Counted from the stretch's first letter, positions 928 to 31,680 are shown. The stretch is 32,000 bases of DNA from Candidatus Iainarchaeum sp. (GCA_016205145.1 JACQJH010000001.1:240001-272000), one strand, 5' to 3'. Notes: a model not told the origin generated them from the sequence alone. Numbers and translations: made by a program.

Positions 928-1021
928 GCTTTTCCAAAAAGCCCCGGCTGGGAAAATTTAATAACTGTTCGAGGTTTTAGTCAATAAACGAAGGCCGATG
1001 ATGACCAGGCTGAGATTTGAG

Positions 1022-2283: not shown

Positions 2284-2432
2284 CAAAAAACACTCTCCAT
2301 GAAAACGAATTTATGCCGATTCGGCATTTTTGCCTGTCTAAAAGCAGTAAAAACTCCTCTACGAAACCCATTAAAAAACTAACTAAAAATTACGAAAAAC
2401 GTATGGACCGTTTTGCCTTAAAAAAGAAAATT

Positions 2433-2541
2433 TGCCGGTGGCGAGATATGAACTCGCGGCCTCTTGATTATGAGTTTCGCCCCGCAACACAAAAAAGCTG
2501 AATTGCAGTCAAGCGCTCTAACCAGGCTGAGCTACACCGGC
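2433..2541 (-). tRNA. tRNA-Met(CAT) (elongator-type, or Ile2-CAU) with a 34-nt non-canonical intron
   Basis: Hand fold: GCCGGTG TA GCTC AGCCTGGTTA GAGC G CTTGA [34-nt intron, 2475-2508] CTCATAA TCAAG AGGCC GCGAG TTCATAT CTCGC CACCGGC A. The acceptor, D, anticodon and T stems all pair. A T-run follows the 3' end. Confidence 0.8.
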
Positions 2542-2613
2542 AAACTCAATTCGGTTAGGCTATGATTTTTGCCTGTTAAAGGCTTTTAAAAGTTGTTTTC
2601 GGCGGTTTCGGTC

Positions 2614-3348
2614 TCAGATGGTGAAAAACCCTTTTTCGCCCAGGACTTCGGCTTCCTTCGACTGTTTGGTGTAGTCGAGCCTGCTTTTCACTTCGATGTG
2701 GCCGTTGTGCAATAGCATCCTGTCCGCATAGCCTATGAACAGGCCGGTTTCAAGCACGCCCGGAATCTCCTTTGCCTGGAATTCCAAGTCTTCAAGCGAA
2801 TAAATCCTGTCGACCAGCACTTCCGTGAGATAGTTGTTCGACTCGGTTTTCGCCGGCTTTCCGTCGCGCAAAACGATGTTTGCCCTGCCGAGCTTTTCAA
2901 GCTGTGCGACCGTGCGCTTCCAGCCGAAAATGGCGATTTCAAACGGGATTTTTCCATGCAATCTTGCGACAAGGTTTTTCCTTTCAGTGATGATTATGAG
3001 CTCTGCCGCGCTCTGCGCTATCATCTTGTCCCTCACAAGCGAATGCGAGTCGCGCTTGATGAAATTGAAAAAATTGTCAGCTTGGTCGACAAACTCGACT
3101 GCAACGTCTATTTCGATGTCGTTCAGCGAAACCACTTCAAGGCCCAGTTCGGTGAGCATTCCCGCCATTTTTGCGGAAGTGGGAACGACCGAAAACGACA
3201 GCTTTTCCTCCTCCGCCTTCAATGCGACCTTTTTGAGGAAGATTTCGGCCATCTCGCTTGTGCCGAACGACAGCACTTCGCCTTTTTTTATGTACTTGTC
3301 GACAAGCAGTTCAACCAGATTTTCGCTCAAAGCCATTGTAATGCCCAT
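2614..3348 (-). CDS. ribose-5-phosphate isomerase A-like protein (divergent active-site motifs)
   Basis: Collinear with RpiA: VVPTS, IDVAVE..D.AD, IK....L.RDK, IPGV.ETGLF. The GTGST, DGADE and KGxGGA motifs are degenerate. Confidence 0.6.
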   Translation of the reverse strand: MGITMALSENLVELLVDKYIKKGEVLSFGTSEMAEIFLKKVALKAEEEKLSFSVVPTSAKMAGMLTELGLEVVSLNDIEIDVAVEFVDQADNFFNFIKRDSHSLVRDKMIAQSAAELIIITERKNLVARLHGKIPFEIAIFGWKRTVAQLEKLGRANIVLRDGKPAKTESNNYLTEVLVDRIYSLEDLEFQAKEIPGVLETGLFIGYADRMLLHNGHIEVKSRLDYTKQSKEAEVLGEKGFFTI

Positions 3349-7780: not shown

Positions 7781-9028
7781 TTATTCCAAATCCCAAAGCT
7801 CTTTGAGCGCGTCAAGCCTGACTGTTTTCTGTTCGCCGGTTTCAAGGTTTTTGACTGCAAGCTCTTTTTTCTGCAGTTCGTCTTCGCCGGCAATAATCGC
7901 GAATTTGATACCCTGCTTGCTTGCGAATTCAAGGTTTTTTGAAATGCCCCTTCCAACCAAATCAATGTCAGTGTTCAGGCCCAGCCTTCTCATTTCCTGC
8001 ACGATTTTAAGGCATTCTTTTTGCGTTTTTCCGATCGGAATGACAAAGAATTTCACCGGGTTTTCTACGCCGAGCTTTTCTTCGACGACATCAAGGAGCC
8101 TGTCGATTCCAAAAGAAATGCCGATTGCCGGTGTAGGCGAACCGCCATAGCTTTCAATGAGATTGTCATATCGGCCGCCCCCGCCGCAGGAAATTCCCGC
8201 ACTTGAAACCTCGAAAACGTTTCCAGTGTAATATTCCAATCCGCGTGCCAGGCTAAGGTCGACTTTTACTTTTTTTGACAGGCCGTTTTCTTCAAGCAAA
8301 TCCAATAGTTCTTTGAGTTCCTTGAACCCGTCTTTTTCTTTCACGTCCTTGGGCAGGCCTTCGAAATCGTTTTTCTTGAGCGTTTCAATGATCTTGTCGG
8401 AAATGCCTTTTTGTTCCAATTCCTTCCTGACTTCTTCTTCGCCGATTTTTTCCAGTTTGTCCAGGCTCCTGAAACAGTCCTTGATTTGGCGTTCTTCCAC
8501 GCCATTCGCCTGCGCGACGGCTTCGAGCAGTTTTCTGTTATTCAGCCTTATGTAGAAATCAACGTTTATTTCTGAAAAAAATTCGGCTGCAAGCGCAATC
8601 AGTTCAAAGTCAGCGAAAACGCTTTTCACTCCGATGATGTCGGCATCCGCCTGTGTAAACTCGCGATACCTTTTTGCGCCCGGCCTGTCATACCGGTAAA
8701 CCCTTTCGATCTGGTAGCGCTTGAACGGTTTCGGCAGCTGCGGGTTTGTTGCTATGACACGTGCCAATGGAACCGTCAGGTCGAAGCGCAGGCCAAGCTC
8801 TCTCTCGGACTTGTCCTTGAAGTAGTAGATTTCTTCCTTGATTGCCTCGCCGCCAGAGCCTTTCTTTGCAAGCAAGGCGAAGTCTTCCACGACGGGCGTC
8901 TGCATTGGCTGGAAACCGTATTTTTCAAAGATGCGCCTGGCTAAACCTTCGAGGAAAAGTTTTTTGCGCGCCTGTTCGGGCAGGATGTCGCGCATTCCCC
9001 TTATCGCCTGGAATTTTTCTTCAGCCAT
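7781..9028 (-). CDS. hisS: histidine--tRNA ligase
   Basis: MAEEKFQAIRGMRDILPEQ..., class II motifs (RYDRP, ...CGGGRYD...), and a C-terminal anticodon-binding domain. The ATG at 9028 is preferred over the upstream alternative at 9055. Confidence 0.92.
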   Translation of the reverse strand: MAEEKFQAIRGMRDILPEQARKKLFLEGLARRIFEKYGFQPMQTPVVEDFALLAKKGSGGEAIKEEIYYFKDKSERELGLRFDLTVPLARVIATNPQLPKPFKRYQIERVYRYDRPGAKRYREFTQADADIIGVKSVFADFELIALAAEFFSEINVDFYIRLNNRKLLEAVAQANGVEERQIKDCFRSLDKLEKIGEEEVRKELEQKGISDKIIETLKKNDFEGLPKDVKEKDGFKELKELLDLLEENGLSKKVKVDLSLARGLEYYTGNVFEVSSAGISCGGGGRYDNLIESYGGSPTPAIGISFGIDRLLDVVEEKLGVENPVKFFVIPIGKTQKECLKIVQEMRRLGLNTDIDLVGRGISKNLEFASKQGIKFAIIAGEDELQKKELAVKNLETGEQKTVRLDALKELWDLE

Positions 9029-9117
9029 GCAATTCACTTTCAGATTTCCTGTCAAAATCCCATAAAAGGGCTATGGTTTATAGCCGCCCGCTTCATTCCG
9101 TGGCATTGTCCAAACTT

Positions 9118-9765
9118 TTATTCCGAACGCGCTGGCTTTCTGACGTGGAATACTCTTGTCGGATAAGTTCCCGGAATAGGTTTTGTGTTTTCCGTGATTA
9201 TTTCAAATCCTGCGGCTTTGAGTTCGCTATGCCAGGTGTTTATCTCTTTTTGTCCGCCTATTTGGATGAGCATGTTGAATTTGGCTTCCCCGCCCGGCCT
9301 GAGTATTCGGTATAATTCGGCAAAGGCTGTGCTTTTGGGCGTTGCGTGTGCTATGCCGAAATGCGAGTAAACAAAGTCGAAGTAATTGTCTGGGCGGCGC
9401 GTGTTGTGCGCGTGCGCAACATGCCATAAAACGTTTTCTTGTCCGCGCCATTCCGGGGCGCGCTTTAAGCTGAGGCCATGTGCTTCCATTTCGGGGTATT
9501 CTCTGGCAAGTTGCATGATGCTTGTTCCTTCTTTACAGCCTAAATCAAGGACCCTGATTTTTCTGTCAGGCGTTGCTTGGTGAATCCTTCTTATGTCCTC
9601 GATATTAAACCCCAGATTTTGGTAAATTGTTGGCAGGCCGGTTTTGCTCACCGACCACCTGCACAGGGGCCTGTTTCCTTCGTAAAGTTTGATTATGTCT
9701 CTGAGTCTTCGGCCCACTTTTGCCCTATCTTCAGGGGATTCGGGTTTTCTATGGCCCGGTTCCAA
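9118..9765 (-). CDS. class I SAM-dependent methyltransferase
   Basis: Motif I is VLDLGCKEGTS; the post-I and II regions are followed by LRPGG. TTG start preceded by GAGGTG (SD-like) at 5-nt spacing. Confidence 0.7.
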   Translation of the reverse strand: MEPGHRKPESPEDRAKVGRRLRDIIKLYEGNRPLCRWSVSKTGLPTIYQNLGFNIEDIRRIHQATPDRKIRVLDLGCKEGTSIMQLAREYPEMEAHGLSLKRAPEWRGQENVLWHVAHAHNTRRPDNYFDFVYSHFGIAHATPKSTAFAELYRILRPGGEAKFNMLIQIGGQKEINTWHSELKAAGFEIITENTKPIPGTYPTRVFHVRKPARSE

Positions 9766-9774
9766 AAAGACACC

Positions 9775-9834
9775 TCATTCCAAATCCCACCGCTCTTTTA
9801 GTTCGTCGAGTTTGACTGTTTTTTGTTCGCCATT
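9775..9834 (-). pseudogene. relic of the 3' end of a hisS-like gene (19 codons plus stop, no start)
   Basis: Minus-strand translation NGEQKTVKLDELKERWDLE* against the HisRS C-terminus TGEQKTVRLDALKELWDLE* gives 15/19 identical. By hand alignment, 48/60 nt are identical to 7781-7840. Confidence 0.7.
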
Positions 9835-10208
9835 TACTTTTTTGCTTTTTTTGCCTCATTCATTTTCGCTTTTGCTTTAAGGATTTGCCCTATCTCCGCG
9901 GCCGGCGCTTTTTGGTCGAACCTGATTTGAATGGTTTTTTTTCCGGTCACATAACCTTTTTCTTCGAGCGCTTTGCGGTCTTTACTTTGAAGCGCGAACG
10001 CCAGGCCGAAGCCGGCGTGGCTCTTGAATGCGGCAAACCCGGCAAGAAGGCCCTGGTATTTGTAGAATGGCACGCCCCAGCTGATGCTTTCCTCCGCCTT
10101 TGGCACGGCTGATTTGATTATTTTCCTGATTTCCTTGAGCGTCGGCTGCGCTTCTATGCCTGCGCCGGCAATGTACTCGTCGACGTTTTTTGCGCTGTAA
10201 TTTTTCAC
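9834..10208 (-). CDS. DUF1801 (YdhG-like) domain protein
   Basis: (V)KNYSAKNVDEYIAGAGIEAQPTLKEIRKIIKSAVPKAEESISWGVPFYKY... fits the DUF1801 pattern. The GTG start at 10208 overlaps the hisG TAG by 1 nt. The long 219-aa track ORF would overlap hisG. Confidence 0.65.
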   Translation of the reverse strand: MKNYSAKNVDEYIAGAGIEAQPTLKEIRKIIKSAVPKAEESISWGVPFYKYQGLLAGFAAFKSHAGFGLAFALQSKDRKALEEKGYVTGKKTIQIRFDQKAPAAEIGQILKAKAKMNEAKKAKK

Positions 10209-11104
10209 TATTCCACGACCTTGTTCAAGGGAAACTCGACTATGCCTTCCGCGCCGGCACCCTTCAGTTTCGGAATGAGCGTCCTGACGTCGTCTATTTT
10301 GACGATTGTGAGAACGTCGAACCAGCCTTCCTTGGAAAGCTTTGAAACCGTTGGATTGTTCAATGATGGCAGGACTTTGAGGACTTTTTGCAGGTTTTTT
10401 TCCTGCACGTTCATCATCAACCCCGCAAGGGTTTGCGCCGCGATTGCGCCTTTGAGCAGGGTTGCGATTTCGTCGATTTTCTTTCTCTTCCACAAATCCT
10501 TTGCCGCGCCTTTGTTTGCAATCAGTTTCGTGTTGCTTTCCATGAGCGTTTCGACAATGCGCAGGCCGTTCGCGCGCAAACTGCTTCCGGTTTCAGTCAC
10601 TTCAACGATTGCGTCGGCAAGCGTCGGCGGCTTGACTTCGGTTGCGCCCCATGAAAATTCCACTTCGGCTTTGACGTTGTTTTTTGCAAGCCATTCCTTT
10701 GTGAATCCCACAAGTTCGGTTGCGATCCTCTTTCCCTGCAGGTCCTTCACGCCTTTGATTTTCGAGTCGTTCGGCACAGCCAGAACCCATTTGACCCTTC
10801 CAAGGCCGGATTTTGCGTAAACAAGGTCCGCGATTTCGTCAACGCTTGACTTGTTTTCAAGAATCCAGTCCTTTCCCGTCAAGCCAAGGTCGATTGCGCC
10901 CTGTTCGACGTAACGCGACATTTCCTGCGCCCTGATGAGCACGCACTCTATTTCATCGTCGTTTATTTTCGGGTAATACGAGCGCTCTTCCGCGCGGATG
11001 TCATAACCGGCTTTCTTGAACAATTCTATTGTCGAATTCTGCAGGCTTCCCTTGGGGATGCCAAGCTTGAGTTTTTTGCCGCTTCCATCTTCTTTGCCTT
11101 TCAT
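10208..11104 (-). CDS. hisG: ATP phosphoribosyltransferase, long form with a C-terminal regulatory domain
   Basis: [24 protein letters not shown]..., 298 aa, which is the HisG-long length. ATGA overlap with the upstream gene. Confidence 0.92.
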
Positions 11105-12102
11105 TTCAATTCCTCCGCTTTCCTGAAAAAACAGCTCCTCTTGCCCGTGTGACAGGCAACATTGCCTTCCTGCTTCACTTTAAGAAGAATCGCGTCGTTG
11201 TCGCAGTCAAATCTCACTTCCCTGACAATCTGGAAGTTTCCGGAAGTTTCGCCTTTCACCCATAATTTTTGCCTGCTTCTGCTCCAATAGCAGGCCTTTC
11301 CTTCTTTCAGGGTGCGGCGAAGGCTTTCCCTGTTCATGTATGCAAGCATAAGCACTTCTCCCGTATTCCAGTCCTGTGCGATTGCAGGCAGCAGGCCGTT
11401 TCCCTTTTCAAAGTCAAGTTCATCGGGCAGGATGTCGGATAATTTTATCTTGCTAGTGTACAATGACATGCCCAATGCGCAGTCCACGCCGATGCCTTCA
11501 AGCCTGCGCGCCTCTTCAAGCGAGGCAATCCCGCCGGCGGCAATGATGCGGTTTTTCGTTGCCTTGCGAAGCCTTTGCACCGCTTCAAAGTCGATGCCTT
11601 TCATGAGGCCCTCTTTTTCCACGCACGTGAACAGGAATGCAGAGCACAGGCCTTCAAATTCTTTCGCCTTTTGCAAATAATCCGCCCCGGTTTTTTCCTG
11701 CCAGCCTTTCACAACAACCTCGCCTTTCCATGAATCCAATGCAACAATGATTTTTTCCTTTCCAATTTGCGCGCCAAGCTTTTGCAGGAATTCCTTGTTT
11801 GCGGCACTGCCGATGATGACGCGCTTTGCGCCAGCGCCGATGAGCGCTTTGGCTTTTTCCACGCTGTCGATTCCGCCGCCGGTGTTTGCATTCACGACAG
11901 AGCAGATTTTTTTGACGGTTGCGAGATTTGAGCCTATGCGTTTTGCCGCGTCCAAATCAATGACCTGCACTTCCCTGAAAGCGGAGAATTTTTCCGCGAA
12001 TTTTTCGGGAGCAGACGCTATGCGAATCTTCTCGGTTTTGCCCTGCTGCAGCTGGACAACTTTTCTGCCTTTCAAGTCAATGCTTGGCAACAACATTTTC
12101 AT
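11101..12102 (-). CDS. hisA/hisI: fusion: HisA-like ProFAR isomerase (aa 1 to ~225) plus phosphoribosyl-AMP cyclohydrolase HisI (aa ~228-333)
   Basis: N-terminal part: [38 protein letters not shown] (HisA barrel). C-terminal part: [24 protein letters not shown]...[18 protein letters not shown]...[11 protein letters not shown]...[11 protein letters not shown] (HisI). The ATG at 12102 overlaps the hisF TGA (ATGA). Confidence 0.88.
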
Positions 12103-12878
12103 TCCCTCACTACAATTCCCTTTTCTTTCAGGTATGCCTTGACTTTCCACACCGGAAACTCGTTGAAATGGAAAATGCTTGCGGCAAGCGCGGCATCGGC
12201 CTTTCCTGTTTCAAATACATCCACAAAGCTTTCAAGGTTTCCCCCGCCCCCGCTTGCAATGACTGGAACGTTAACGCTTTCCGAAACCGCTTTTGTCAGT
12301 TCGAGGTCGAAGCCCTCTTTTGTTCCGTCGCGGTCCATGCTTGTCAGGAGGATTTCGCCTGCGCCAAGTTCAACCGCTTCTTTCGCCCATTCGAGGGCGT
12401 TTTTTCCCGTGAATTTGCGGCCGCCGTATTTCGAGCACTCCCACCAGACTTTTCCTTTCTCTTCCCTTTTTTTCGCGTCAATCGCCAGCACGACTGCCTG
12501 GTTGCCATACGCTTTTGCAATCTCCGAAATGAGGCGAGGCCTTTCCAGCGCGGCAGTGTTTATGCTTACCTTGTCCGCGCCTGCTTCGAACACACTTTTT
12601 GCGTCCGCCAGTGAGCGTATTCCGCCCCCGACAGTTAACGGCACGAAAACTTCCTGCGCGGTTTTTTCGATTACGTCAACCATTGTTTCTCTTCTCTCGG
12701 AACTTGCGGTGATGTCCAGAAAGACGATTTCGTCAGCGCCCTGCGCGTAATACGCTTCGGCCTGCTCCCACGGCACGCCGGCGTATTTTATTTCCTTGAA
12801 CTGGACTCCTTTGACGACTCTTCCTTGCGCGACCGAAAGGTCGCAGTCCAGACAGGGAATGATTCGTTTTGCGAGCAT
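12099..12878 (-). CDS. hisF: imidazole glycerol phosphate synthase, cyclase subunit
   Basis: [13 protein letters not shown]...VVKGVQF...[11 protein letters not shown]...GGGIRS...; full-length HisF. Confidence 0.95.
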
Positions 12879-12890
12879 TTGAAACCAGTT

Positions 12891-13295
12891 TTATTCTCTA
12901 TTCATTAATTCAGTTTGAACGCGGGTGTACATTGTAATTAATCCATTTGCAATAATGTCCGTTGTGTGTTCGGGCTGTTCTGTCGTGCGTTCGTGTTCTA
13001 TTTCAATGAACCGGTTTATCCTTTCCATTGTGCTTTCAAGGACTTCCGTGGGAATGCTTGTGAGCGGCCTATTGCGTTCAACCAATCTTAGTGTCAGCCT
13101 TTCGAGTTGCTGGTCTGGGCCCAATCCGGTTTCCAGCAATTTTTGCAGTTCCGGAATCACATGTTGCTGGGCCGGCATATCCGTTCCGGGGACGGTATGT
13201 GTCGATTCTCTCACATCTTGCCCAAAATAACCCTGCGCTATATTCCGGAAACGTTCTTTAAGCCCTTCCGGGTGCGCCTCATGTCGTCTCTCCAT
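12891..13295 (-). CDS. hypothetical protein embedded in the his operon (orf134)
   Basis: 134 aa. GAGGTGAT (SD) lies 5 nt upstream of the ATG and overlaps the hisH stop. The composition is poor in Lys and rich in Glu/Arg/Thr/His, unlike neighbouring genes. I could not recognise any family. Confidence 0.6.
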   Translation of the reverse strand: MERRHEAHPEGLKERFRNIAQGYFGQDVRESTHTVPGTDMPAQQHVIPELQKLLETGLGPDQQLERLTLRLVERNRPLTSIPTEVLESTMERINRFIEIEHERTTEQPEHTTDIIANGLITMYTRVQTELMNRE

Positions 13296-13304
13296 AGTAT
13301 CACC

Positions 13305-13907
13305 TCAAATTTCAACAAAATTCTCCAGCACCTTAAGTCCAGCGGCTCCGCTTTTTTCCGGGTGGAATTGCACGGCAAAAACGTTGTCTTTTTCAACAGC
13401 GGAACAGTATTTTCCGCCGTAATCGGTTTCGCCAGAGACGATGTCCTTGTCGAACGGCTTGGCATAATAGCCGTGCACGAAATAAAAGAACGAATTGTCG
13501 GGAACATCCTCGAGCAGCGCGCTTTCCTTTGCCTTTTCGACCTGGTTCCAGCCGATCTGGGGAACTTTCAGGTTTTTTCCTTCAAATTTTTCAACCGTGC
13601 CCTGCAAAACTTTCAGGCCTTCGCTTTCAGGGCTTTCCGCGCTTTCCTCGAACAGCGCCTGGAGGCCGATGCAGATGCCGAGGAAAGGCTTTCCTTCCTC
13701 GATTGCCCATTCGATTGCGTAGTCCAGTTTTTTTTCGCGCAGTTCGCGCATTGCCTCGCCGAAATTGCCCACGCCGGGAAAAACGACCTTGCTCGCTTTT
13801 CCCACCTGTTCAGGAGTTTTCGCAATGACTGCCTTTTCGCCGATTTTTCGGAAGGCGTTGCGGACGCTCTGCAAATTGCCCCTGCCATAATCAATGATTG
13901 CAATCAT
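13305..13907 (-). CDS. hisH: imidazole glycerol phosphate synthase, glutamine amidotransferase subunit
   Basis: MIAIIDYGRGNLQSVRNAF..., GICIGLQ (catalytic Cys), ...QFHPEKS. Confidence 0.95.
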   Translation of the reverse strand: MIAIIDYGRGNLQSVRNAFRKIGEKAVIAKTPEQVGKASKVVFPGVGNFGEAMRELREKKLDYAIEWAIEEGKPFLGICIGLQALFEESAESPESEGLKVLQGTVEKFEGKNLKVPQIGWNQVEKAKESALLEDVPDNSFFYFVHGYYAKPFDKDIVSGETDYGGKYCSAVEKDNVFAVQFHPEKSGAAGLKVLENFVEI

Positions 13908-14536
13908 AGCATTCCCTTGGTGCTCGGCAAAAACTTCTGCCGCCTGTCAAATTCAACCGCGCAACGCAACGCGCGCGCGAAAGCCTTGAACAGCGCTTCA
14001 ACCAGGTGGTGTGCATTCTTTCCGTAAACAACTTTGACGTGGATGTTTGCCTTCAGCTCGTTTGCCACTGCCTGGAAGAATTCTTCCACAAGCTCGGTCG
14101 GAAACCCGCCGATGCGGTCGAGCGGAAACTTTGCGTCGAACACAAGCTTTGGCCTGCCGCTCAAATCAATCGCGCAGAACGCAAGGCTTTCATCCATTGG
14201 CACGTATTCCCAGCCGTACCTTGCAATGCCCTTTTTGTCGCCAAGCGCTTTAGCTATTGCCTGTCCGAGGACAATGCCGGTATCCTCGACAGTGTGGTGC
14301 AAATCCACTTCCAAGTCGCCTTTTGCCTCAAGCGAAACGTCGATGAGGCTGTGCTTGGAGAAAAGTTCGAGCATGTGGTTGAAGAACCCGATTCCGGTTT
14401 CAATTTCATACCTGCCTTCGCCGTCAAGGTTTACCGAGGCTTTGATTTTGGTTTCAGTGGTGTTCCGTTCAATCTCCGCTTTCCTCACGAATGATTTCGC
14501 CTTTTTTTCGTTTGCCTTTCCTTTGCCTTCGCTCAT
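13904..14536 (-). CDS. hisB: imidazoleglycerol-phosphate dehydratase
   Basis: RNTTETKI...GIGFFNHML...DLHHTVEDTGI...NAHH..EA.FKAFARAL; ATGA overlaps at both ends. Confidence 0.95.
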   Translation of the reverse strand: MSEGKGKANEKKAKSFVRKAEIERNTTETKIKASVNLDGEGRYEIETGIGFFNHMLELFSKHSLIDVSLEAKGDLEVDLHHTVEDTGIVLGQAIAKALGDKKGIARYGWEYVPMDESLAFCAIDLSGRPKLVFDAKFPLDRIGGFPTELVEEFFQAVANELKANIHVKVVYGKNAHHLVEALFKAFARALRCAVEFDRRQKFLPSTKGML

Positions 14537-15591
14537 TTCGTTTCACCCAAAACCTTTTCCAGCGCGGAGCAGAATTTTTTCATCTGTTCTGGCGTGCCGA
14601 TGCTGATGCGGATGCAGCCTTCCAGTCTCTCATAACCGCTCCTGTCCCTTACAAGGAAGCCTTTTTCCTTAAGCTTTTCGGCGATTGCTTTGGCGTTTTT
14701 GCCAAAGCGTGCGACGAGAAAATTCGACTTGCTCGGAAAGCGCTTCACGCCTTTTTCGTCAAGGAACTTTTCAAGAATTGCGCGCCCCGCTTCAACCTGT
14801 TTCACATAATCCTGCATGTAAGCCGGGTCCTTCAGCGCTTCCGTTGCCGCGAGCGCGCTCAAAGCGGTGATGCTGTAAGGCGACTTCGCCTTTTTCAGCG
14901 TTGAAATGATTTTTTCGTTTCCCAGAGCGTATCCGATGCGCATTCCGCCGAGGCCCATTGCCTTTGAAAAGGTTTTGAGCACGACAAGGTTGTCGAACTC
15001 TCCAATCCTGCCGGCAACGGTTTCTTTCGTGAATTCCGAGTATGCTTCGTCGACGATTGCCAGGCAGCCTTCCGCCCGCGCGGCCCTGATGATTTCGATG
15101 AGGTCTTTTTCCGGAATTTCGGTGGCAGTCGGATTGTTGGGGTTGCAGAGAATGACTGCCCGGCTGCCCTTGATTTCCGCGAGCACTTTTTGCGTCGGAA
15201 ATGAGAGGTCTTCATTGTACAGCGGCTTTGCAATTTTCGCCCCTTGCAGTTCAGCGTAAAAGTAAAACATGGCAAAGCTCGGAGTCGGAATCACGATCTT
15301 TCCGTTGCCCACAAAGCATTCAATGCATCCGCGGATGGCCTCATCCGAGCCGTTGAAGGGCACGGCGTTTTCCGGCTTCGCGTTGTTGTAATCCGCAATC
15401 GCTTTTGTCAGCTCCGAGTATTCCGGATACGCGGACAGCCTTTCCGCTGAAACGTTTTTGATTGCCGTGAGAACGCGCGGGCTTGGGCCGAGAGTGTTTT
15501 CGTTGAAGTCAAGCCTCATTTTGCCCAGCCTGCTGGCTGTCGGAGGATTGTACGGCTTGAGCTTTTTCACATTGCCGGTTTCGGAAATCAT
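14533..15591 (-). CDS. hisC: histidinol-phosphate aminotransferase
   Basis: LKPYNPP...RLDFNENTLGPSP...NPNNPT...FSKAMGLGGMRIGY (PLP Lys). The start is ambiguous: ATG at 15591 (1 nt after the hisD stop), ATG at 15609, or TTG at 15624. Confidence 0.9.
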   Translation of the reverse strand: MISETGNVKKLKPYNPPTASRLGKMRLDFNENTLGPSPRVLTAIKNVSAERLSAYPEYSELTKAIADYNNAKPENAVPFNGSDEAIRGCIECFVGNGKIVIPTPSFAMFYFYAELQGAKIAKPLYNEDLSFPTQKVLAEIKGSRAVILCNPNNPTATEIPEKDLIEIIRAARAEGCLAIVDEAYSEFTKETVAGRIGEFDNLVVLKTFSKAMGLGGMRIGYALGNEKIISTLKKAKSPYSITALSALAATEALKDPAYMQDYVKQVEAGRAILEKFLDEKGVKRFPSKSNFLVARFGKNAKAIAEKLKEKGFLVRDRSGYERLEGCIRISIGTPEQMKKFCSALEKVLGETK

Positions 15592-15592
15592 T

Positions 15593-17794
15593 TCATTCAC
15601 TTCCCGCATGCTCCGGCTTTCCAAAAAGCTTTGGCAGTTCGTTTATGTCTTTCAACACGGCGTCCGCGCCTTTTTCCAAATAAAATTTTTTGCCCGGCGA
15701 GAACGCGCCCGTCAAAACCATTGCGCAAAAATTGCCTTTCAGCGGGCCGCCCGCGTTTTTCACCATTTCAAGGTCGTCAATCATGTCACCCACATACAAA
15801 ACCTTTTCGGCATTGAGCCTTTTTTTCATCCATTCCAGCGGCGCGGCGTTTGGTTTCAACTTTCCGCCGGTTTCGCTTGCGGTTTCATCCGAAAAAATGT
15901 TTTCTTTTGCAATCGCCGCTGCAAGGCCGCATCTTTCAAGGCAAAGCATTGCTTCGTTGAACGTGCGCCCGGTTATCACGCCGAGCTTTTTGCCGTTGTT
16001 TTTCAGCCACTCGACGGTTTTCCTTGAAACAATCATTTTTTCGTTTTCGCAAAGCCCTTTTTTCACGCCCAATCTTGCCGGTTTGCCGAAAAACTCCGTG
16101 AAACGCCTTTCGCCGAGGTATAGTTCCTCGAACGCGTCCATGATTTTTTCGCGGTCGTATTCGCGTGCAATGCTTTCCCACTTTTGGCCGGCAATCTGCC
16201 TTGCAGCCCTTTCTGCGCCTTCAAAGCCTTTGTCCAAGCCGATTTTCGGGGCGAATTCTTCCCCGCTTACGCGAAAGCCGTTTTTTTGCAGCAACGCAAC
16301 CAGGCTTAAAGCATAGGCAACGTGCCAGTCGTTGTTGAATCCCCCCAAGCGCTTGAACAAAGCGGTTTTCTGCACCGGAAACCTTTTTCCGTACAAAACT
16401 TCGACCGCTTTCACTGTTGCAATCCTGTAAGTGTTGCTTACATCTGCCAGCACGCCGTCAATGTCCAAAACAATCGCGTCAACGCCAGAAAACCCGCTTC
16501 CGGGCGCGCTTTTTCCGCGGTCCAAGCGTATTTCAACGCTTTTTTTGTGCGCTTCAAGGCCCTCGGAATCAGCCATTGCACCAATCGTTTTTTGCAGGCC
16601 TTTCAGGCCTTTTTCAGAGATTTTCTGGAACGCGATGACCTTGACAAAGTCCCTTGCCGACAGGCCAGCGCGTTGTTTTGCCGTTCCGCCGGTTGGCAGG
16701 ACGTGATTTGTGCCGGAACAGTAGTCTCCCGCGGCTACCGGGCTGAAGTCTCCGAGAAAAACGCTTCCAGCCGCGCTTATTTGCGGCAGAAGCCTTTCCG
16801 CCCTGCCGAAAAGCACCAAGTGTTCCGGGCCGATTTGGTTCACGATGCCCGCGCAGTCCTGCAGATCCCTTGCAATGACAACAGCCGAATTGGTTTCAAG
16901 CGCCCTGCGTGCTGTTTCGGCATTCTTTGCTGTTTCAAGCTGAACCGAAAGCGCGGCTTTGGCTTTTTCTGCGAGCGCCCTGTCCGGCGTGACAAGAATG
17001 CAGACGCTGTTTGAGTCGTGCTCGGCCTGCGTCAAAAGCTCGGCCGCAACGATTTTCGCGTCGGCTTTCGAGTCCGCTACAACGCACACCTCGCTCGGCC
17101 CGGCAACAAAATCAATGGAAACCTGGCCGAAAACAAGCCTTTTCGCGGTTGCGACAAAAACGTTTCCCGGCCCGGCAATCTTTTGCACGCGCGGCACGGT
17201 TTTGGTGCCGAATGCCATTGCGGCAATTGCCTGGCTTCCGCCCAGAGTGAAAATCCTGTCCACGCCGGCGATGTCGGCTGCGACAAGCACGAGCGGGTTA
17301 GTGCCATCCTTTTTCGGCGGAGTGCACATCACAATCTCTTTCACGCCCGCGGCTTTCGCAGGCAAGGCATTCATCAAAACGCTTGAAGGCAAAGGATACC
17401 TGCCCGCTGGAACATAAATGCCGACAACGTCCAATGGCCTGACAATTTCCCCAACAACCACGCCTTGCGCATTTTCAGTTTTCCATTCTTTCGGCAGCTG
17501 CCTTTTTGCAAAAGCAAGAATGTTTTTTTTCGCGAGCTTCAAGGCTTCAACCTGTGCCTTCGAAACTTTGGAATAAGCCGCCTTAATCTCCGCACTGCTC
17601 ACTTCCATGCTTTCAGGGGAAAGCCGCACGCCATCGAATTTTTCCGAAAACGCAATCAGCGCGGAATCGCCTTTTTCCCTGACTTCCGCGATAATGCTTC
17701 GGACGGTTTCTTCGACATTCTTGTCCGGCGCCTCCAGCCCGGCAAGGAACGCTTCAAGCTCTCCGGGTTTTTCGGCGGTTATTTCTTTCAGCAT
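15593..17794 (-). CDS. hisD: fusion: histidinol dehydrogenase (~427 aa) plus C-terminal HAD-superfamily phosphatase (~295 aa)
   Basis: HisD part: ...VREKGDSAL..FSEKFDGV...GPGNVFV..AK...QAEHD...GDY.SGTNHVLPT...EGLEAHKKSVEIRL. After the linker DRGKSAPGSGFSG come HAD motifs DIDGV (I), VITGRT (II), K..P (III) and YVGDMIDD (IV). ATG at 17794 (GTG alternative at 17803). Confidence 0.9.
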   Translation of the reverse strand: MLKEITAEKPGELEAFLAGLEAPDKNVEETVRSIIAEVREKGDSALIAFSEKFDGVRLSPESMEVSSAEIKAAYSKVSKAQVEALKLAKKNILAFAKRQLPKEWKTENAQGVVVGEIVRPLDVVGIYVPAGRYPLPSSVLMNALPAKAAGVKEIVMCTPPKKDGTNPLVLVAADIAGVDRIFTLGGSQAIAAMAFGTKTVPRVQKIAGPGNVFVATAKRLVFGQVSIDFVAGPSEVCVVADSKADAKIVAAELLTQAEHDSNSVCILVTPDRALAEKAKAALSVQLETAKNAETARRALETNSAVVIARDLQDCAGIVNQIGPEHLVLFGRAERLLPQISAAGSVFLGDFSPVAAGDYCSGTNHVLPTGGTAKQRAGLSARDFVKVIAFQKISEKGLKGLQKTIGAMADSEGLEAHKKSVEIRLDRGKSAPGSGFSGVDAIVLDIDGVLADVSNTYRIATVKAVEVLYGKRFPVQKTALFKRLGGFNNDWHVAYALSLVALLQKNGFRVSGEEFAPKIGLDKGFEGAERAARQIAGQKWESIAREYDREKIMDAFEELYLGERRFTEFFGKPARLGVKKGLCENEKMIVSRKTVEWLKNNGKKLGVITGRTFNEAMLCLERCGLAAAIAKENIFSDETASETGGKLKPNAAPLEWMKKRLNAEKVLYVGDMIDDLEMVKNAGGPLKGNFCAMVLTGAFSPGKKFYLEKGADAVLKDINELPKLFGKPEHAGSE

Positions 17795-17805
17795 GTAGAC
17801 CACGT

Positions 17806-17870
17806 GCCAAGTAAAGGCTTACTTGGCATATTGCGCAGCAATATGCCTTGGTTTCGCACCCGCCGGGCGA
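17806..17870 (-). repeat. intergenic hairpin element, copy A (between the tRNA-His 3' end and the hisD start)
   Basis: Plus strand: CTTACTTGGC; stem GGCATATTGC (17825-17834) pairs with GCAATATGCC (17838-17847); then TTGGTTTCG. An extra 9-bp hairpin GCCAAGTAA (17806-17814) / TTACTTGGC (17819-17827) lies just upstream of the hisD ATG. Confidence 0.55.
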
Positions 17871-17879
17871 TGACGGCGA

Positions 17880-18104
17880 GGCCTGTGCCGGGAATCGAGC
17901 CCGGGCCGGGGGATAACTGCAACCATGCGGTTTTTCGCAAACCTTTTTGGAAAAGGTTTCTTGCGGTTTTTCGCAAACCTTTTTGGAAAAGGTTTCTTGC
18001 GGTTTTTCGCAAACCTTTTTGGAAAAGGTTTCTTGCGGTTTTTCGCAAACCTTTTTCCAAAAGGTTTCCACAGTCCCCAATGCTGCCACTACACCACACA
18101 AGCC
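17880..18104 (-). tRNA. tRNA-His(GTG) with a 153-nt intron at the canonical 37/38 position
   Basis: 5' exon 18104-18068: G(-1) GCTTGTG TG GTGT AGTGGCA GCAT T GGGGA CTGTGG. 3' exon 17914-17880: A TCCCC CGGC CCGGG CTCGATT CCCGG CACAGGC C. The encoded G-1 sits opposite C73, a tRNA-His hallmark. All four stems pair. Confidence 0.8.
17927..18069 (-). repeat. four tandem copies of a 36-nt unit (GCGGTTTTTCGCAAACCTTTTTGGAAAAGGTTTCTT on the plus strand) filling the tRNA-His intron
   Basis: Units start at 17927, 17963, 17999 and 18035. The first three are identical; the fourth has GG to CC in the loop and is truncated at the exon. Each unit contains the 9-bp palindrome AAACCTTTT/AAAAGGTTT. Confidence 0.95.
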
Positions 18105-18107
18105 ATT

Positions 18108-18161
18108 CGGCGGTTTCGTCCGCCGGGTTCGACGACGGGTACTTCGCTGCGCTCAGTACCC
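18108..18161 (+). repeat. intergenic hairpin element, copy F (abuts the tRNA-His 5' end on the opposite strand)
   Basis: CGGCGG-TTTCGT-CCGCCG (18108-18125), GGTTCGAC (18126-18133), then GGGTACT (18137-18143) pairs with AGTACCC (18155-18161) across an 11-nt loop. Same layout as copy E. Confidence 0.5.
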
Positions 18162-18349
18162 ATCTGTTCTTTTTCGTATTATCCTCTGCCGCTAAAAGGT
18201 TTTCCGCCGCGAATCCAGCCTGAGGGCTGGGTTGCGTTGAAAACAGGCTTTCAGAGTTACTTCTATTCAAGAATTTAAGAGAATTTTCATACGATGTGAA
18301 GTAACTCACTTTTCATTCTGAAAACCTGAAATAATCTGCCTATGCAAGG

Positions 18350-18357
18350 TTTAAATA
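18350..18357. promoter_or_regulatory. palindromic TATA box TTTAAATA (within GGTTTAAATACC)
   Basis: The same GGTTTAAATA sequence occurs at 30853-30862 in front of a gene start. Direction here is unresolved. A plus-strand TSS would fall near 18380, at the edge of hairpin copy C. A minus-strand TSS would fall near 18325. Confidence 0.4.
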
Positions 18358-18381
18358 CCTATGCGGCGGCGGGAATTCGTG

Positions 18382-18441
18382 CTTACTCGGCCATTGCAAC
18401 GCAATGGCCTTGGTTCCGAACGCAGGGGGCTTCGCCCCCTC
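18382..18441 (-). repeat. intergenic hairpin element, copy C
   Basis: Plus strand: CTTACTCGGC; stem GGCCATTGC (18389-18397) pairs with GCAATGGCC (18401-18409); TTGGTTCCG; then the GGGGGC-TTC-GCCCCC hairpin (18425-18439). Confidence 0.55.
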
Positions 18442-18466
18442 ACCCGTCCCCAATCATTTACTACTG

Positions 18467-18528
18467 CTTACTCGGCGTATTGCGCTGGCAATACGCCTTG
18501 GTTCCGAACCAGCCGGACGGAACCGGCT
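18467..18528 (-). repeat. intergenic hairpin element, copy B (immediately 3' of tRNA-Leu)
   Basis: Plus strand: CTTACTCGGC; stem GGCGTATTGC (18474-18483) pairs with GCAATACGCC (18488-18497); TTGGTTCCGAACC; then AGCCGG-ACGGAA-CCGGCT (18511-18528). Confidence 0.55.
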
Positions 18529-18529
18529 T

Positions 18530-18613
18530 TGCAGGAGGGCGGATTCGAACCGCCGAACGCACTAAGCGACAAGGCCCTGAACCTTGCGGGTTTGGCCGCT
18601 TCCCTACCCCTGC
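18530..18613 (-). tRNA. tRNA-Leu(CAG)
   Basis: GCAGGGG TA GGG AAGCGGCCAAA CCC G CAAGG TTCAGGG CCTTG TCGCTTAGTGCGTTC (long variable arm) GGCGG TTCGAAT CCGCC CTCCTGC A. Confidence 0.9.
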
Positions 18614-18678
18614 ATTATGCTAGTATTTGTTTTGGGTTTGTTTTAAGAATATTTTTTTTTGCGCGCCGGAACGCGCTT

Positions 18679-18752
18679 CGACCCCAAGGGGATTTGAACC
18701 CCTGCCAGAGGCTCCGCAAGCCCCCGTGCTGTCCAGGCTACACCATGGGGCC
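18679..18752 (-). tRNA. tRNA-Arg(GCG)
   Basis: GGCCCCA TG GTGT AGCCTGGACA GCAC G GGGGC TTGCGGA GCCTC TGGC AGGGG TTCAAAT CCCCT TGGGGTC G. It is followed 2 nt later by the hairpin GCGCG-TTCCGG-CGCGC (18676-18661). Confidence 0.88.
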
Positions 18753-18837
18753 AGAACTGTCCGGGCAATTTTGCCAGAAGCAATTGTGCTGAAAAAGTCT
18801 TTTTATGGCTTGTGTTGGATTGCCATAATAAAAGCGC

Positions 18838-29191: not shown

Positions 29192-29281
29192 TTGCCGCTT
29201 TTTTTTGCAATTGCATTATGTTTGCATTTTTTGTGTTTGCGTTTTTTTTTGTAATTGCATTGGTTTGCGTTTCCTTTTATT

Positions 29282-30838
29282 TTATTGCAATTCCGAGCAC
29301 GCGCTTAATCCGGGGCGGAGCATTGCCCTGTATTGCCTTTTGTTCCTGATCTGCACGCCGATGTCGTTGTTTTTGACTATCCCGATTTTGGCTTCGGTTT
29401 CCTCGAGCAGTTTCCTGTCAAGGTCGGTTTCAACCGGCGTCGAGAGCGCTATGCCCGTGCCGAAGGTTTTGAGTTCGAGCATTGTTTCGGCGATGCTTTT
29501 GCCGTCAAGCGTTTCATCTTCGAACGGCGCCAGCTTTTCCGTTTCGGGGATGAAAACCATTGTTTTGAGCCCTCCCCGCGAACCGTGTTTCCTGAAATGG
29601 TTGAGCAGTTCCCTTAACAGCGCGTCGACCATAATGAGCGACTGCCTTTTGTCCAGGCCAGCCAGGCTGATGTGGCTTGTCCTGCCGATGCCATGCAGCC
29701 ATTTTTTTGAAATTTCCTCGACGTTGTTTTGGCCGCCGAAAAATCCGGGATAGCGAACATCCAAAAGCTTTGCAAGCCTTATGGTTTTGAGTTTGTGGAA
29801 ATCGTTCCAGTCGTCCGTTGCGGGCATTTTTTCTATTTCTTTTATGAGGCCGTCGATCGACTCCGCTTTCGACAGCTTTACCGCCTTTGCAAGAGTTTGC
29901 GCTGCAACGTTGTTTCCGGTTTCAAAGAGTTCCAGCACGCCGTCAGCATTGAGGCTTGGAATGCATGCCTTGATGTTTTCCTTGGGCTTGAATTCCCTGA
30001 ACGGGAAACCGATGGGTTCCACGTCAAGCTTGTAGTCGAGGAGCTTTTCCTTCTGCTCCGTCTGCCTTTTGAGGCCGGAAAACCTGTCGCTCCAGTCGAA
30101 GACTATTGCGGGCAGGCTTGAAAGCAGGGCGCTTTCGATGAGAATGTGCATTGCGTGGTTTCTTTCCTTTTCAGTTCCGCCGTAGATTACGGTGTGCGAG
30201 AAAAGCCTCAGCGGCTCTTTGAGCGGCTGGTTTTCCGCGGAAACCCCGAGAATGATTTCACCGGCCAGGTCGTGTTTTTGCATGTTTCCTTCATCCCGCT
30301 CCCCGTCGGCTGTTGCAGGCCCGGCAGTGCCAAGGCTGTTAGGCATGAGTTCCATTGCCAGCAATGGCTGGGAGAAGAACGCGTTTTTTGTCTCGTCGCC
30401 GCTTTTTTCCAGTTCCGAGAGCTCTATGTCGTATGCCTTTGAAAAGTTGCCGACAAGCTTTGCCGAGGTTTCAATCTGTTTGAGCTGCTCGTCGACGGTT
30501 TCCTCGAGCGAATCCTTTTCAAGCGGCGAATACGCCGGCTCGGAGGGCAGGAGCAGGAATTTCATTGTTTTTTTAGGGTCGTGCCTTGAAACGACTATCG
30601 CGTCTTTCGGAAAGGTTTCAACGAAACCGTCTATGTTGCCGGTAGCGTGGAAAACCTTGAAGAGCTGCGTAAGCGCGCCCTTTTTTTTGCCGTTTTCCTC
30701 GTCGAAGACGGTTGCGAGCACGACGGATTCCGGGTTCAATTTGATTTCCGAGGCGTGGCCCAGGACATTGCCTTCGAACAATTGCTTCCAAGGGCCCTGT
30801 AAAAACCTGGCCTCTCCGCTTTTCCGTTTCATGCCCAT
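29282..30838 (-). CDS. HerA/DUF87-like protein with degenerate Walker A and B motifs
   Basis: SHTVIYGGTEKERNHAMHILIE...PAIVFDWSDRFSGL aligns with the HerA pattern H-hhI-G-TGSGKS-N...hhIhD-HGEY. ISLAGLDKRQ...LKTMVFIPETEKLAP aligns with the Walker B segment (hhhEEAH). The TATA at 30855-30862 favours an ATG at 30838 or 30832 over the TTG at 30868. Confidence 0.65.
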   Translation of the reverse strand: MGMKRKSGEARFLQGPWKQLFEGNVLGHASEIKLNPESVVLATVFDEENGKKKGALTQLFKVFHATGNIDGFVETFPKDAIVVSRHDPKKTMKFLLLPSEPAYSPLEKDSLEETVDEQLKQIETSAKLVGNFSKAYDIELSELEKSGDETKNAFFSQPLLAMELMPNSLGTAGPATADGERDEGNMQKHDLAGEIILGVSAENQPLKEPLRLFSHTVIYGGTEKERNHAMHILIESALLSSLPAIVFDWSDRFSGLKRQTEQKEKLLDYKLDVEPIGFPFREFKPKENIKACIPSLNADGVLELFETGNNVAAQTLAKAVKLSKAESIDGLIKEIEKMPATDDWNDFHKLKTIRLAKLLDVRYPGFFGGQNNVEEISKKWLHGIGRTSHISLAGLDKRQSLIMVDALLRELLNHFRKHGSRGGLKTMVFIPETEKLAPFEDETLDGKSIAETMLELKTFGTGIALSTPVETDLDRKLLEETEAKIGIVKNNDIGVQIRNKRQYRAMLRPGLSACSELQ

Positions 30839-31602: not shown

Positions 31603-31680
31603 CTTACTCGGCATTCTGCGAAAGCAGAATGCCTTGGTTTCGGCACGCGCGGTCGAAAACGCGCCCGGACGAAACCGGCT
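31603..31680 (-). repeat. intergenic hairpin element, copy D (starts at the stop codon of the minus-strand gene)
   Basis: Plus strand: CTTACTCGGC; stem GGCATTCTGC (31610-31619), GAAA loop, GCAGAATGCC (31624-31633); TTGGTTTCG; inner GCGCG hairpin; then CCGG-ACGAAA-CCGG (31665-31678). Confidence 0.55.

Follow-up and report, generated by a model that had tools for sequence, protein, structure and literature searches.

Y1/HUH transposases recognise repetitive extragenic palindromic (REP) sequences and the ends of IS200/IS605 insertion sequences through a folded single strand plus its flanking bases. The bacterial REP, BIME and REPIN elements, which RAYT proteins (Y1 transposase-like) mobilise, are short extragenic imperfect palindromes with an invariant tag beside the stem (PMC2817692, PMC3116915, PMC3733652, PMC3479197). 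IS200/IS605 ends and their non-autonomous derivatives, the PATEs, a type of element known in archaea from Haloquadratum, use strand-specific subterminal hairpins that are recognised as single-stranded DNA (PMC3119063). Here we describe double-hairpin elements of ~75–100 nt in a 32-kb stretch of DNA from an uncultivated DPANN archaeon (Candidatus Diapherotrites); this whole stretch will be referred to as the window, and coordinates are those of the window. Because their flanks are invariant and asymmetric, their stem is constrained in shape only, their modules are interchangeable, and they occur in both orientations, are gained and lost, and have a narrow distribution, we read these elements, with roughly even confidence, as a lineage-specific family of palindromic DNA repeats resembling REPs or miniature inverted-repeat transposable elements (MITEs), dispersed within a narrow group of tiny archaea from groundwater. 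The family belongs to no described family and, as to its kind, is best filed among the short interspersed palindromic repeats.

The first hairpin of each element, together with its flanks, will be called module 2. We define the P strand as the strand reading CTTACTY, hairpin, GCCTTGGTTYCG, which is the + strand of the window for the four full copies, A to D (Table 1). In the window, the pattern CTTACTYGGC-N(10-30)-GCCTTGGTT occurs exactly four times, always on the + strand, with 0 matches expected from 100 shuffles, and searching the window with a covariance model of these copies adds no further or weaker one, even at E<=10. The original prediction, made from the window alone, had counted at least seven copies; the elements exist, but that count mixes four full elements with three partial or solo hairpins. 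All module 2 copies are intergenic, with stems of 9–10 bp and loops of 3–5 nt across the set, and the window stems are perfect palindromes of that length with loops of 3–4 nt. Within the hairpin only the outer GGC/GCC and inner TGC/GCA pairs are fixed, and the flanks are near-invariant. In an alignment of seven copies (four from the window and three from related contigs), 100% of the stem cells pair and 4 of the 10 pairs are altered on both sides, giving eight such cells. The observed pairing score was reached by none of 500 shuffles, and slid registers pair just 25–46%. Together with the compensated changes between copy A and its orthologue described below, these results bear out the earlier observation of near-invariant flanks beside fully compensated stems, and its interpretation as selection on structure rather than simple repeat copying: the module 2 stems are under selection for pairing and are not merely copied.

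The full family comprises eight copies in three lineages, four in the window and four on related metagenome contigs. A relative whose HisD is 85% identical (contig L122) carries the orthologue of copy A at 1190–1233, ~24 nt upstream of hisD, with two compensated double changes and one G.T pair. A metagenome scan with a 22-base pattern yielded two true copies, L131 and L132, both from Joint Genome Institute (JGI) sample 3300004210; the former adjoins the 3' end of a tRNA-Gln and the latter lies upstream of a small open reading frame (ORF). The eighth copy, seen on contigs L138–L143, is more divergent (31.5 bits) and lies at the site orthologous to D. At this site the window has a 76-nt composite element that nearly fills the intergenic spacer of two convergent genes, lineage Y (L136; neighbouring protein 88% identical) has a spacer of 17 nt only (3161–3177), and lineage X (L138; neighbouring protein 70% identical) carries a copy whose 5' tag and stem are different. 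No copy lies in 20.5 kb of a Diapherotrites metagenome-assembled genome that is syntenic but more distant, and at the D site of that genome the genes abut.

Exchange between loci is also apparent. The right half of L138 agrees with that of window copy A, which lies at a different locus, in 34 of 35 positions. When the window is compared with L122, tRNA-Leu and the promoter block are ~100% identical, and the trailers of tRNA-Leu and tRNA-His show whole-module differences, including a clean 16-nt indel of a single hairpin and an insertion of ~75 nt. These comparisons show that copies have been added, removed and recombined between loci within the time separating close relatives. Logan contigs (k=31) from four runs end inside elements, 16–18 nt past GCCTTGGTTTCG, at three loci (Table 1), which is compatible with a recurrence of that sequence elsewhere in the metagenomes concerned; a GGR search for the tRNA-Gln locus of the window organism returned only short contigs stopping at the element.

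Every module 2 copy is followed by a GC-rich hairpin, often with the loop NCGRAA, and this right half falls into several subtypes: GCCGGGCGATGACGGC in A and L138, CGCG-TCGAAA-CGCG in D and L131, GCCGG-ACGRAA-CCGGC in B, D and L132, and GGGGGC-TTC-GCCCCC in C. GC stems capped by a TTYCGN loop (NCGRAA when read on the opposite strand) had been predicted as a second module, module 1, and are indeed found at 1022–1039, 18108–18125, 18511–18528, 18661–18676 and 31665–31678; three of them abut gene 3' ends as claimed, lying 0–1 nt from tRNA-Leu, tRNA-Arg and the stop codon at 31679. Two partial members, E and F, are inverted relative to A–D and carry no module 2 tags, and both contain the additional hairpin with an 11-nt loop noted earlier (1048–1076 and 18137–18161). 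Element E is a 92% inverted copy of the right half of B, with 1022–1045 complementary to 18505–18528. Element F is kept in L122, where its stem changes are compensated, and its 3' hairpin with the preceding bases is closely similar to what comes after module 2 in L132.

The flank GGTTYCG of B, D and L132 can be seen to pair with CGRAACC in the right hairpin. The resulting helix in B (GGTTCCG/CGGAACC, 7 bp, 18500–18524) competes with the hairpin at 18511–18528, and in both B and D the minimum-free-energy fold holds this alternative helix, stacked on the first hairpin, in place of the module 1 hairpin. The helix as originally predicted is therefore real. The conformational switch proposed along with it is not established, because A, C, L122 and L138 do not have the helix, which 3–4 of the eight copies carry, and because only one position is compensated. 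Nor do the elements act like a strand-specific RNA element or switch, given their mixed orientation relative to transcription, their absence from the orthologous site of the closest relative and from the distant syntenic genome, and the different subtype found at that site in another relative.

The likeness to bacterial REPs extends to the variation of the stem between copies with pairing kept, the clustering at gene 3' ends and between convergent genes, the tandem clusters (here C and B), the lineage-specific families with gain and loss between relatives, and a possible secondary role as transcript hairpins. Unlike REPs, the present elements carry GCCTTGGTTYCG as another conserved tag, and a second hairpin obligatorily follows the first; the inverted-pair layout typical of REPINs is absent, the host is a DPANN archaeon, and the window ORFs include no RAYT gene, which in REP systems is single-copy and usually has REPs on its flanks. 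A 2013 survey of tagged REPs mentions archaea in its reference list only.

As regards IS200/IS605 ends and PATEs, no terminal inverted repeat or target duplication is visible in the elements, folding favours one strand, and TTAC stands 5' of the hairpin in seven of the eight copies. IS608 inserts 3' of TTAC, which lies ~19 nt from its hairpin; here the distance from TTAC to the foot of the 10-bp hairpin is ~2 nt. In further contrast to these systems, no distinct left and right ends can be defined, neither tnpA nor tnpB, the genes of the full-length element with which a PATE shares its ends, is found in the window or the related loci, and the elements are far shorter than typical PATEs. Double-hairpin elements are also present in Allomyces mitochondria. 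The mobile GC clusters of fungal mitochondria (PMC4478555) resemble the present family as small GC-rich hairpin modules in intergenic spacers, with two adjacent hairpins per element and presence/absence variation between close relatives, but the genetic system and the sequences are unrelated and the likeness is one of analogy only. Bacterial intrinsic terminators and 3' stabiliser hairpins likewise place a GC hairpin directly after a gene end; here, by contrast, none of the four window copies has a U-run after it, the conserved flanks are asymmetric, and the host is archaeal.

If the repeat reading holds, the full element on the P strand would present a single-stranded 5' tag CTTACTY, a 9–10 bp hairpin, the tag GCCTTGGTTYCG and a second GC-rich hairpin drawn from several interchangeable subtypes. 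A protein that recognises a folded single strand and its flanking bases would need invariant flanks and a stem constrained in shape. Since the pattern of flanks and stem suits recognition of the Y1/HUH kind, we infer by analogy that a P-strand single-stranded DNA hairpin mobilises or maintains the elements. Inserted elements would probably also act as harmless or useful transcript hairpins, as bacterial REPs do, and are probably tolerated, or used, as hairpins at gene ends. The pressing of copies on gene ends, especially the 3' ends of tRNAs, largely reflects the compactness of the genome, in which intergenic spacers are tiny: with an unoccupied spacer of 17 nt, any insertion touches a gene.

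The choice between DNA and RNA depends in part on which strand folds. Both imperfect stems (L122 and L138) have G.T on the P strand, equivalent to A.C on the gene-sense strand. The P strand is the more stable one in six of the eight copies with RNA and DNA parameters alike; for the other two, RNA parameters give one tie and one case in which the P strand is worse, and DNA parameters give two ties. The P-strand loops include GCA, GAAA, GGCA and CUUG with C-G closure, which we take to be stable loop classes, the complementary loops falling outside such classes. This strand is antisense to the adjoining tRNA or gene in A, B, D, L122, L131 and L138, while E, F and L132 have the opposite transcriptional orientation, sense into the downstream gene. 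Most copies have no promoter-like sequence ahead of them, and no TATA-like sequence is found at ~-26 of A, B, L122, L131 or L132. Though few in number, these data agree better with a folded single strand of DNA than with the expected transcript.

These observations bear first on a role in RNA. As the main alternative, which we judge less likely than the repeat reading, the elements could be cis-acting RNA elements of 3' trailers, read in gene sense (CGRAACCAAGGC-hairpin-GCCRAGTAAG) after tRNAs and some mRNAs, where they would protect the 3' end or assist processing or termination, with protein-bound flanks and copies gained where useful. A GC hairpin indeed lies 0–6 nt from the 3' ends of tRNA-Leu, tRNA-Arg and tRNA-His in the window and of tRNA-Leu, tRNA-His and tRNA-Gln in lineage X, that is, at six of eight tRNA 3' ends in the two lineages. 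Because the hairpin sequences differ between these ends, the presence of a trailer hairpin would be kept while its sequence turns over. The only T-runs near module 2, T9 in L131 and T6 in L132, follow it in the gene-sense direction, and tRNA-Arg, tRNA-Leu and tRNA-His lack a T-run of their own, which tRNA-Cys and tRNA-Thr have. Compensation of the stems at orthologous sites and the G.U pair that the L122 trailer hairpin CGCCG/UGGCG has on the gene-sense strand point the same way. On the other hand, the module 2 imperfections are A.C in gene sense and G.U on the other strand, which also has the better loops, and the related E, F and L132 face the opposite way. The D element is dispensable in the closest relative and absent from the distant syntenic genome, and right halves have been swapped between unrelated loci. 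Archaeal RNA polymerase is not known to rely on hairpins in termination, which also counts against a trailer role.

The better folding of the P strand, and the directly stacked helices of 10 and 9 bp that it forms in B and D, would also suit independent small RNA genes on the + strand, transcribed for example from the symmetric TATA box at 18350–18357 into C and B; this box places a + strand start at ~18380, at the 5' end of copy C. We consider such genes highly improbable, given the lack of TATA-like sequences before the five copies named above, the position of the conserved sequence downstream of the TATA box on its minus side, the antisense course that the transcripts would take into tRNAs, and the lack of an Rfam match. 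A further account, and an improbable one, holds that the copies are fixed binding sites in duplex DNA for a protein (a chromatin protein, a boundary or insulator factor, or a regulator of tRNAs or of the his operon), neither mobile nor RNA. The asymmetric, invariant flanks would be expected of such sites, GAGTAAGC occupies positions -31 to -24 relative to the hisD ATG in the window and L122 alike, and GCCGAGYAAGCAC is conserved beside a conserved TATA box. However, a duplex binder explains neither the compensated stem changes nor the strand-specific wobble, copy D lies between convergent 3' ends with nothing to regulate, and a close relative has no element at this site.

Several observations weigh against the repeat family that we favour. 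The strand asymmetry rests on two wobble pairs and small energy differences. All six module 2 loci with readable neighbours are found immediately 3' of a gene and share one relative orientation, and this uniformity counts against mobile repeats since a 3'-trailer RNA also predicts it. Compensated change at orthologous sites (A and F, each against L122) is likewise expected of a structure selected by the host. The 32 kb hold four full copies, three of them within one 700-bp tRNA cluster, compared with the tens to hundreds per genome of REP families, although the contig ends inside elements hint at further copies. No transposase or other mobilising gene is found among the ORFs of the 32-kb window, and the tag, CTTACTY(GGC) or (GCC)RAGTAAG on the other strand, is not the GTAG/CGTC of REPs, which is absent (PMC3733652). 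At the D site of lineage Y the spacer ends in GCGCAAT, similar to the loop-proximal 3' arm (GC-GCAAT) of module 2 hairpins, so this spacer may hold a deletion remnant and need not be a never-occupied site. At this one empty site neither a terminal inverted repeat nor a target-site duplication is visible, with element boundaries uncertain by ~7 nt, and the two ends of the element (CTTAC... and ...CCGG or ...GGCGGG) do not form an inverted repeat. The possibility, raised originally as a refutation, that the copies are termini of a MITE or an insertion sequence is thus matched by the presence/absence variation and module shuffling, but not by terminal inverted repeats or target-site duplications.

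By analogy with bacterial REPs, which are both mobilised DNA and transcript hairpins, the repeat and trailer interpretations are not mutually exclusive. A more specific proposal, that this is the first archaeal REP-like system, in which folded single-stranded double-hairpin elements are served by a Y1/HUH-type enzyme and co-opted by the host as transcript hairpin boundaries, seems doubtful to us. If the family is truly REP-like, hairpin-recognised non-autonomous DNA repeats would extend to DPANN archaea, whose genomes are very small and compact and in which repeats are expected to be rare. With its short elements, clear flanks and several subtypes, the family would be a tractable case for study, making it testable how such repeats persist and whether they double as transcript boundaries beside tRNA genes. 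The elements also fragment short-read assemblies of the genomes that carry them, and can be mistaken for small RNA genes or riboswitch-like switches.

Searches of databases and literature were in line with the earlier statement that no known RNA family could be assigned: in Rfam only the tRNAs of the window are matched, and nothing overlies the elements at the gathering score or at E<=5. BLAST collections of phages and plasmids gave noise only, and three matches in viral contigs were rejected, none having the full flank. A 19-base gapped pattern run against genome contigs gave, among the matches listed, only chance ones in bacteria, and is uninformative on distribution across GTDB; a match in Azonexaceae (L087) with a 5-bp stem is within chance expectation. 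Literature searches turned up no account of such elements for Diapherotrites or other archaea.

Other known classes were also considered and rejected. A mini-array of clustered regularly interspaced short palindromic repeats (CRISPR) formed by C and B would have only two adjacent units, with an 85-nt period and differing stems. By eye, the flanks lack the GA.AG geometry required of a kink-turn (K-turn) or C/D box, and GGTTCG plus hairpin gives no consistent fold as a tRNA-like structure, T-arm mimic or bulge-helix-bulge. Two lineages have RAGTAAG at -31 to -24 of hisD, but at the other copies there is no downstream gene for it to serve as a promoter. The IS91-like appearance of the flank CTTG/GTTC was judged a coincidence. 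A classical MITE was set aside for want of terminal inverted repeats and of a duplication at the D site compared with the empty L136 site, and an intrinsic terminator because no run of >=4 T directly follows any window copy on either strand.

Table 1. Coordinates of the elements, their hairpins, the neighbouring tRNA genes and the Logan contig ends
Feature	Position	Strand	Details
Pattern match, module 2 of A	17818-17853	+	
Pattern match, module 2 of C	18382-18415	+	
Pattern match, module 2 of B	18467-18503	+	
Pattern match, module 2 of D	31603-31639	+	
Module 2, copy A	17818-17856	+	CTTACTTGGC, stem GGCATATTGC/GCAATATGCC, then GCCTTGGTTTCG
Extra 10-bp palindrome TGCCAAGTAA/TTACTTGGCA	17805-17828		copy A 5' flank and an inverted partial copy of that flank
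A-type right half GCCTTGGTTTCGCACCCGCCGGGCGATGACGGCGA	17845-17879	+	hairpin CGCCG/CGGCG abutting tRNA-His 3' end
Module 2, copy C, with right hairpin	18382-18440	+	copy C itself 18382-18418
C right hairpin AGGGGGC-ttc-GCCCCCT	18424-18440	+	
Module 2, copy B, with right half	18467-18528	+	copy B itself 18467-18506; abuts tRNA-Leu 3' end (18529)
B hairpin AGCCGG-acggaa-CCGGCT	18511-18528	+	
Composite element D	31603-31678	+	module 2 31603-31642
D middle hairpin GCGCG-gtcgaaaa-CGCGC	31647-31664	+	
D terminal hairpin CCGG-acgaaa-CCGG	31665-31678	+	touches stop codon of convergent gene
Solo GC hairpin GCGCG-ccggaa-CGCGC	18661-18676		1 nt past tRNA-Arg 3' end
Element E	1022-1076	minus	partial, inverted relative to A-D
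E hairpin GCCCCATGC/GCATGGGGC	1048-1076	minus	11-nt loop; then GTCGAACC
E hairpin AGCCG-gacgaaag-CGGCT	1022-1039	minus	
Element F	18108-18161	minus	partial, inverted relative to A-D
F hairpin GGGTACT/AGTACCC	18137-18161	minus	11-nt loop; then GTCGTCGAACCC
F 3' hairpin CGGCGG-acgaaa-CCGCCG	18108-18125	minus	stops 3 nt short of tRNA-His 5' end
tRNA-Leu	18529-18614	minus	
tRNA-Arg	18678-18753	minus	
tRNA-His(GTG)	c[17878,18104]	minus	153-nt intron ~17915-18067
Tandem repeat inside tRNA-His intron	17926-18068		4 x 36-nt units
Logan contig end, L001	31658		
Logan contig ends, L123 and L124	17874		
Logan contig end, L134			

The gene content of the window fits an archaeon, with a family B DNA polymerase, a complete his operon and intron-containing tRNAs, and almost every gene lies on the minus strand. 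Read on that strand, the tRNA cluster runs tRNA-Arg, tRNA-Leu, a conserved non-coding block and tRNA-His(GTG). The last is overlooked by default ARAGORN and Rfam because of its 153-nt intron, which sits at the canonical 37/38 position and consists mostly of tandem 36-nt units that each contain two small hairpins. In L122 the orthologous tRNA-His (1001–1072) lacks an intron, and the intron has therefore been gained or lost recently. tRNA-His lies between inverted family members, with F on its upstream and A on its downstream side; copy A adjoins it and sits between its 3' end and the start of hisD, which begins 83 nt past that end with no T-run between. Another intron-containing tRNA, tRNA-Cys(GCA) at 2432–2542 (minus; 34-nt intron), is detected by Rfam and by ARAGORN with introns allowed, and is missed by default ARAGORN.

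The his operon (window 7781–18104, minus; L122 1001–5525) comprises a hisD-HAD fusion, hisC, hisB, hisH, hisA, hisF/hisI and hisG, with tRNA-His directly upstream and histidyl-tRNA synthetase at the far end. The linkage of tRNA-His and hisD is retained in lineage X, and co-transcription or regulatory coupling of tRNA-His with histidine synthesis is possible. HisD (15593–17794, minus) has 733 aa and is fused at its C-terminus to a HAD-family hydrolase domain, presumably a histidinol-phosphate phosphatase; this fusion is common only to the closest relative, the remaining HisD matches being ~430 aa long.

The non-coding block of the tRNA cluster (18210–18357, minus, with its TATA box at 18350–18357; L122 765–905) is almost 100% identical over ~130–150 nt between the window and L122, compared with ~85% for proteins. 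It folds as a long hairpin GAGUUACUUC/GAAGUAACUC flanked by the C/D-box-like motifs AUGAAAA and CUGA, has no match in Rfam, and probably represents a so far undescribed small RNA that shares a transcript with tRNA-His. Next to element E, GGCCGATGATGACCAGGCTGAGATTTGAGAGCC at 985–1016 (+) has a perfect C box AUGAUGA and a D box CUGA 7 nt apart and lies ~25 nt downstream of the TATA-like TTTAATAA. This could represent a minimal RNA of K-turn or C/D-like type, unless the match is coincidental.

The first 35 positions of L122 (1–35; ENA contig k141_842052) are the Illumina adapter GTGACTGGAGTTCAGACGTGTGCTCTTCCGATCT, an assembly artefact in the public record. Elsewhere in the window, an AT-rich intergenic stretch at 29219–29292 (L136 ~850–930) contains a 34-nt tandem repeat and motifs of the TTGCAATTGCA type (TTGCATTGGTTTGCGTTTCC...) and is conserved in lineage Y. 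It lies upstream of a gene for a HerA-like ATPase and ~600 nt from the family B DNA polymerase gene, and could be a regulatory or origin-like region.

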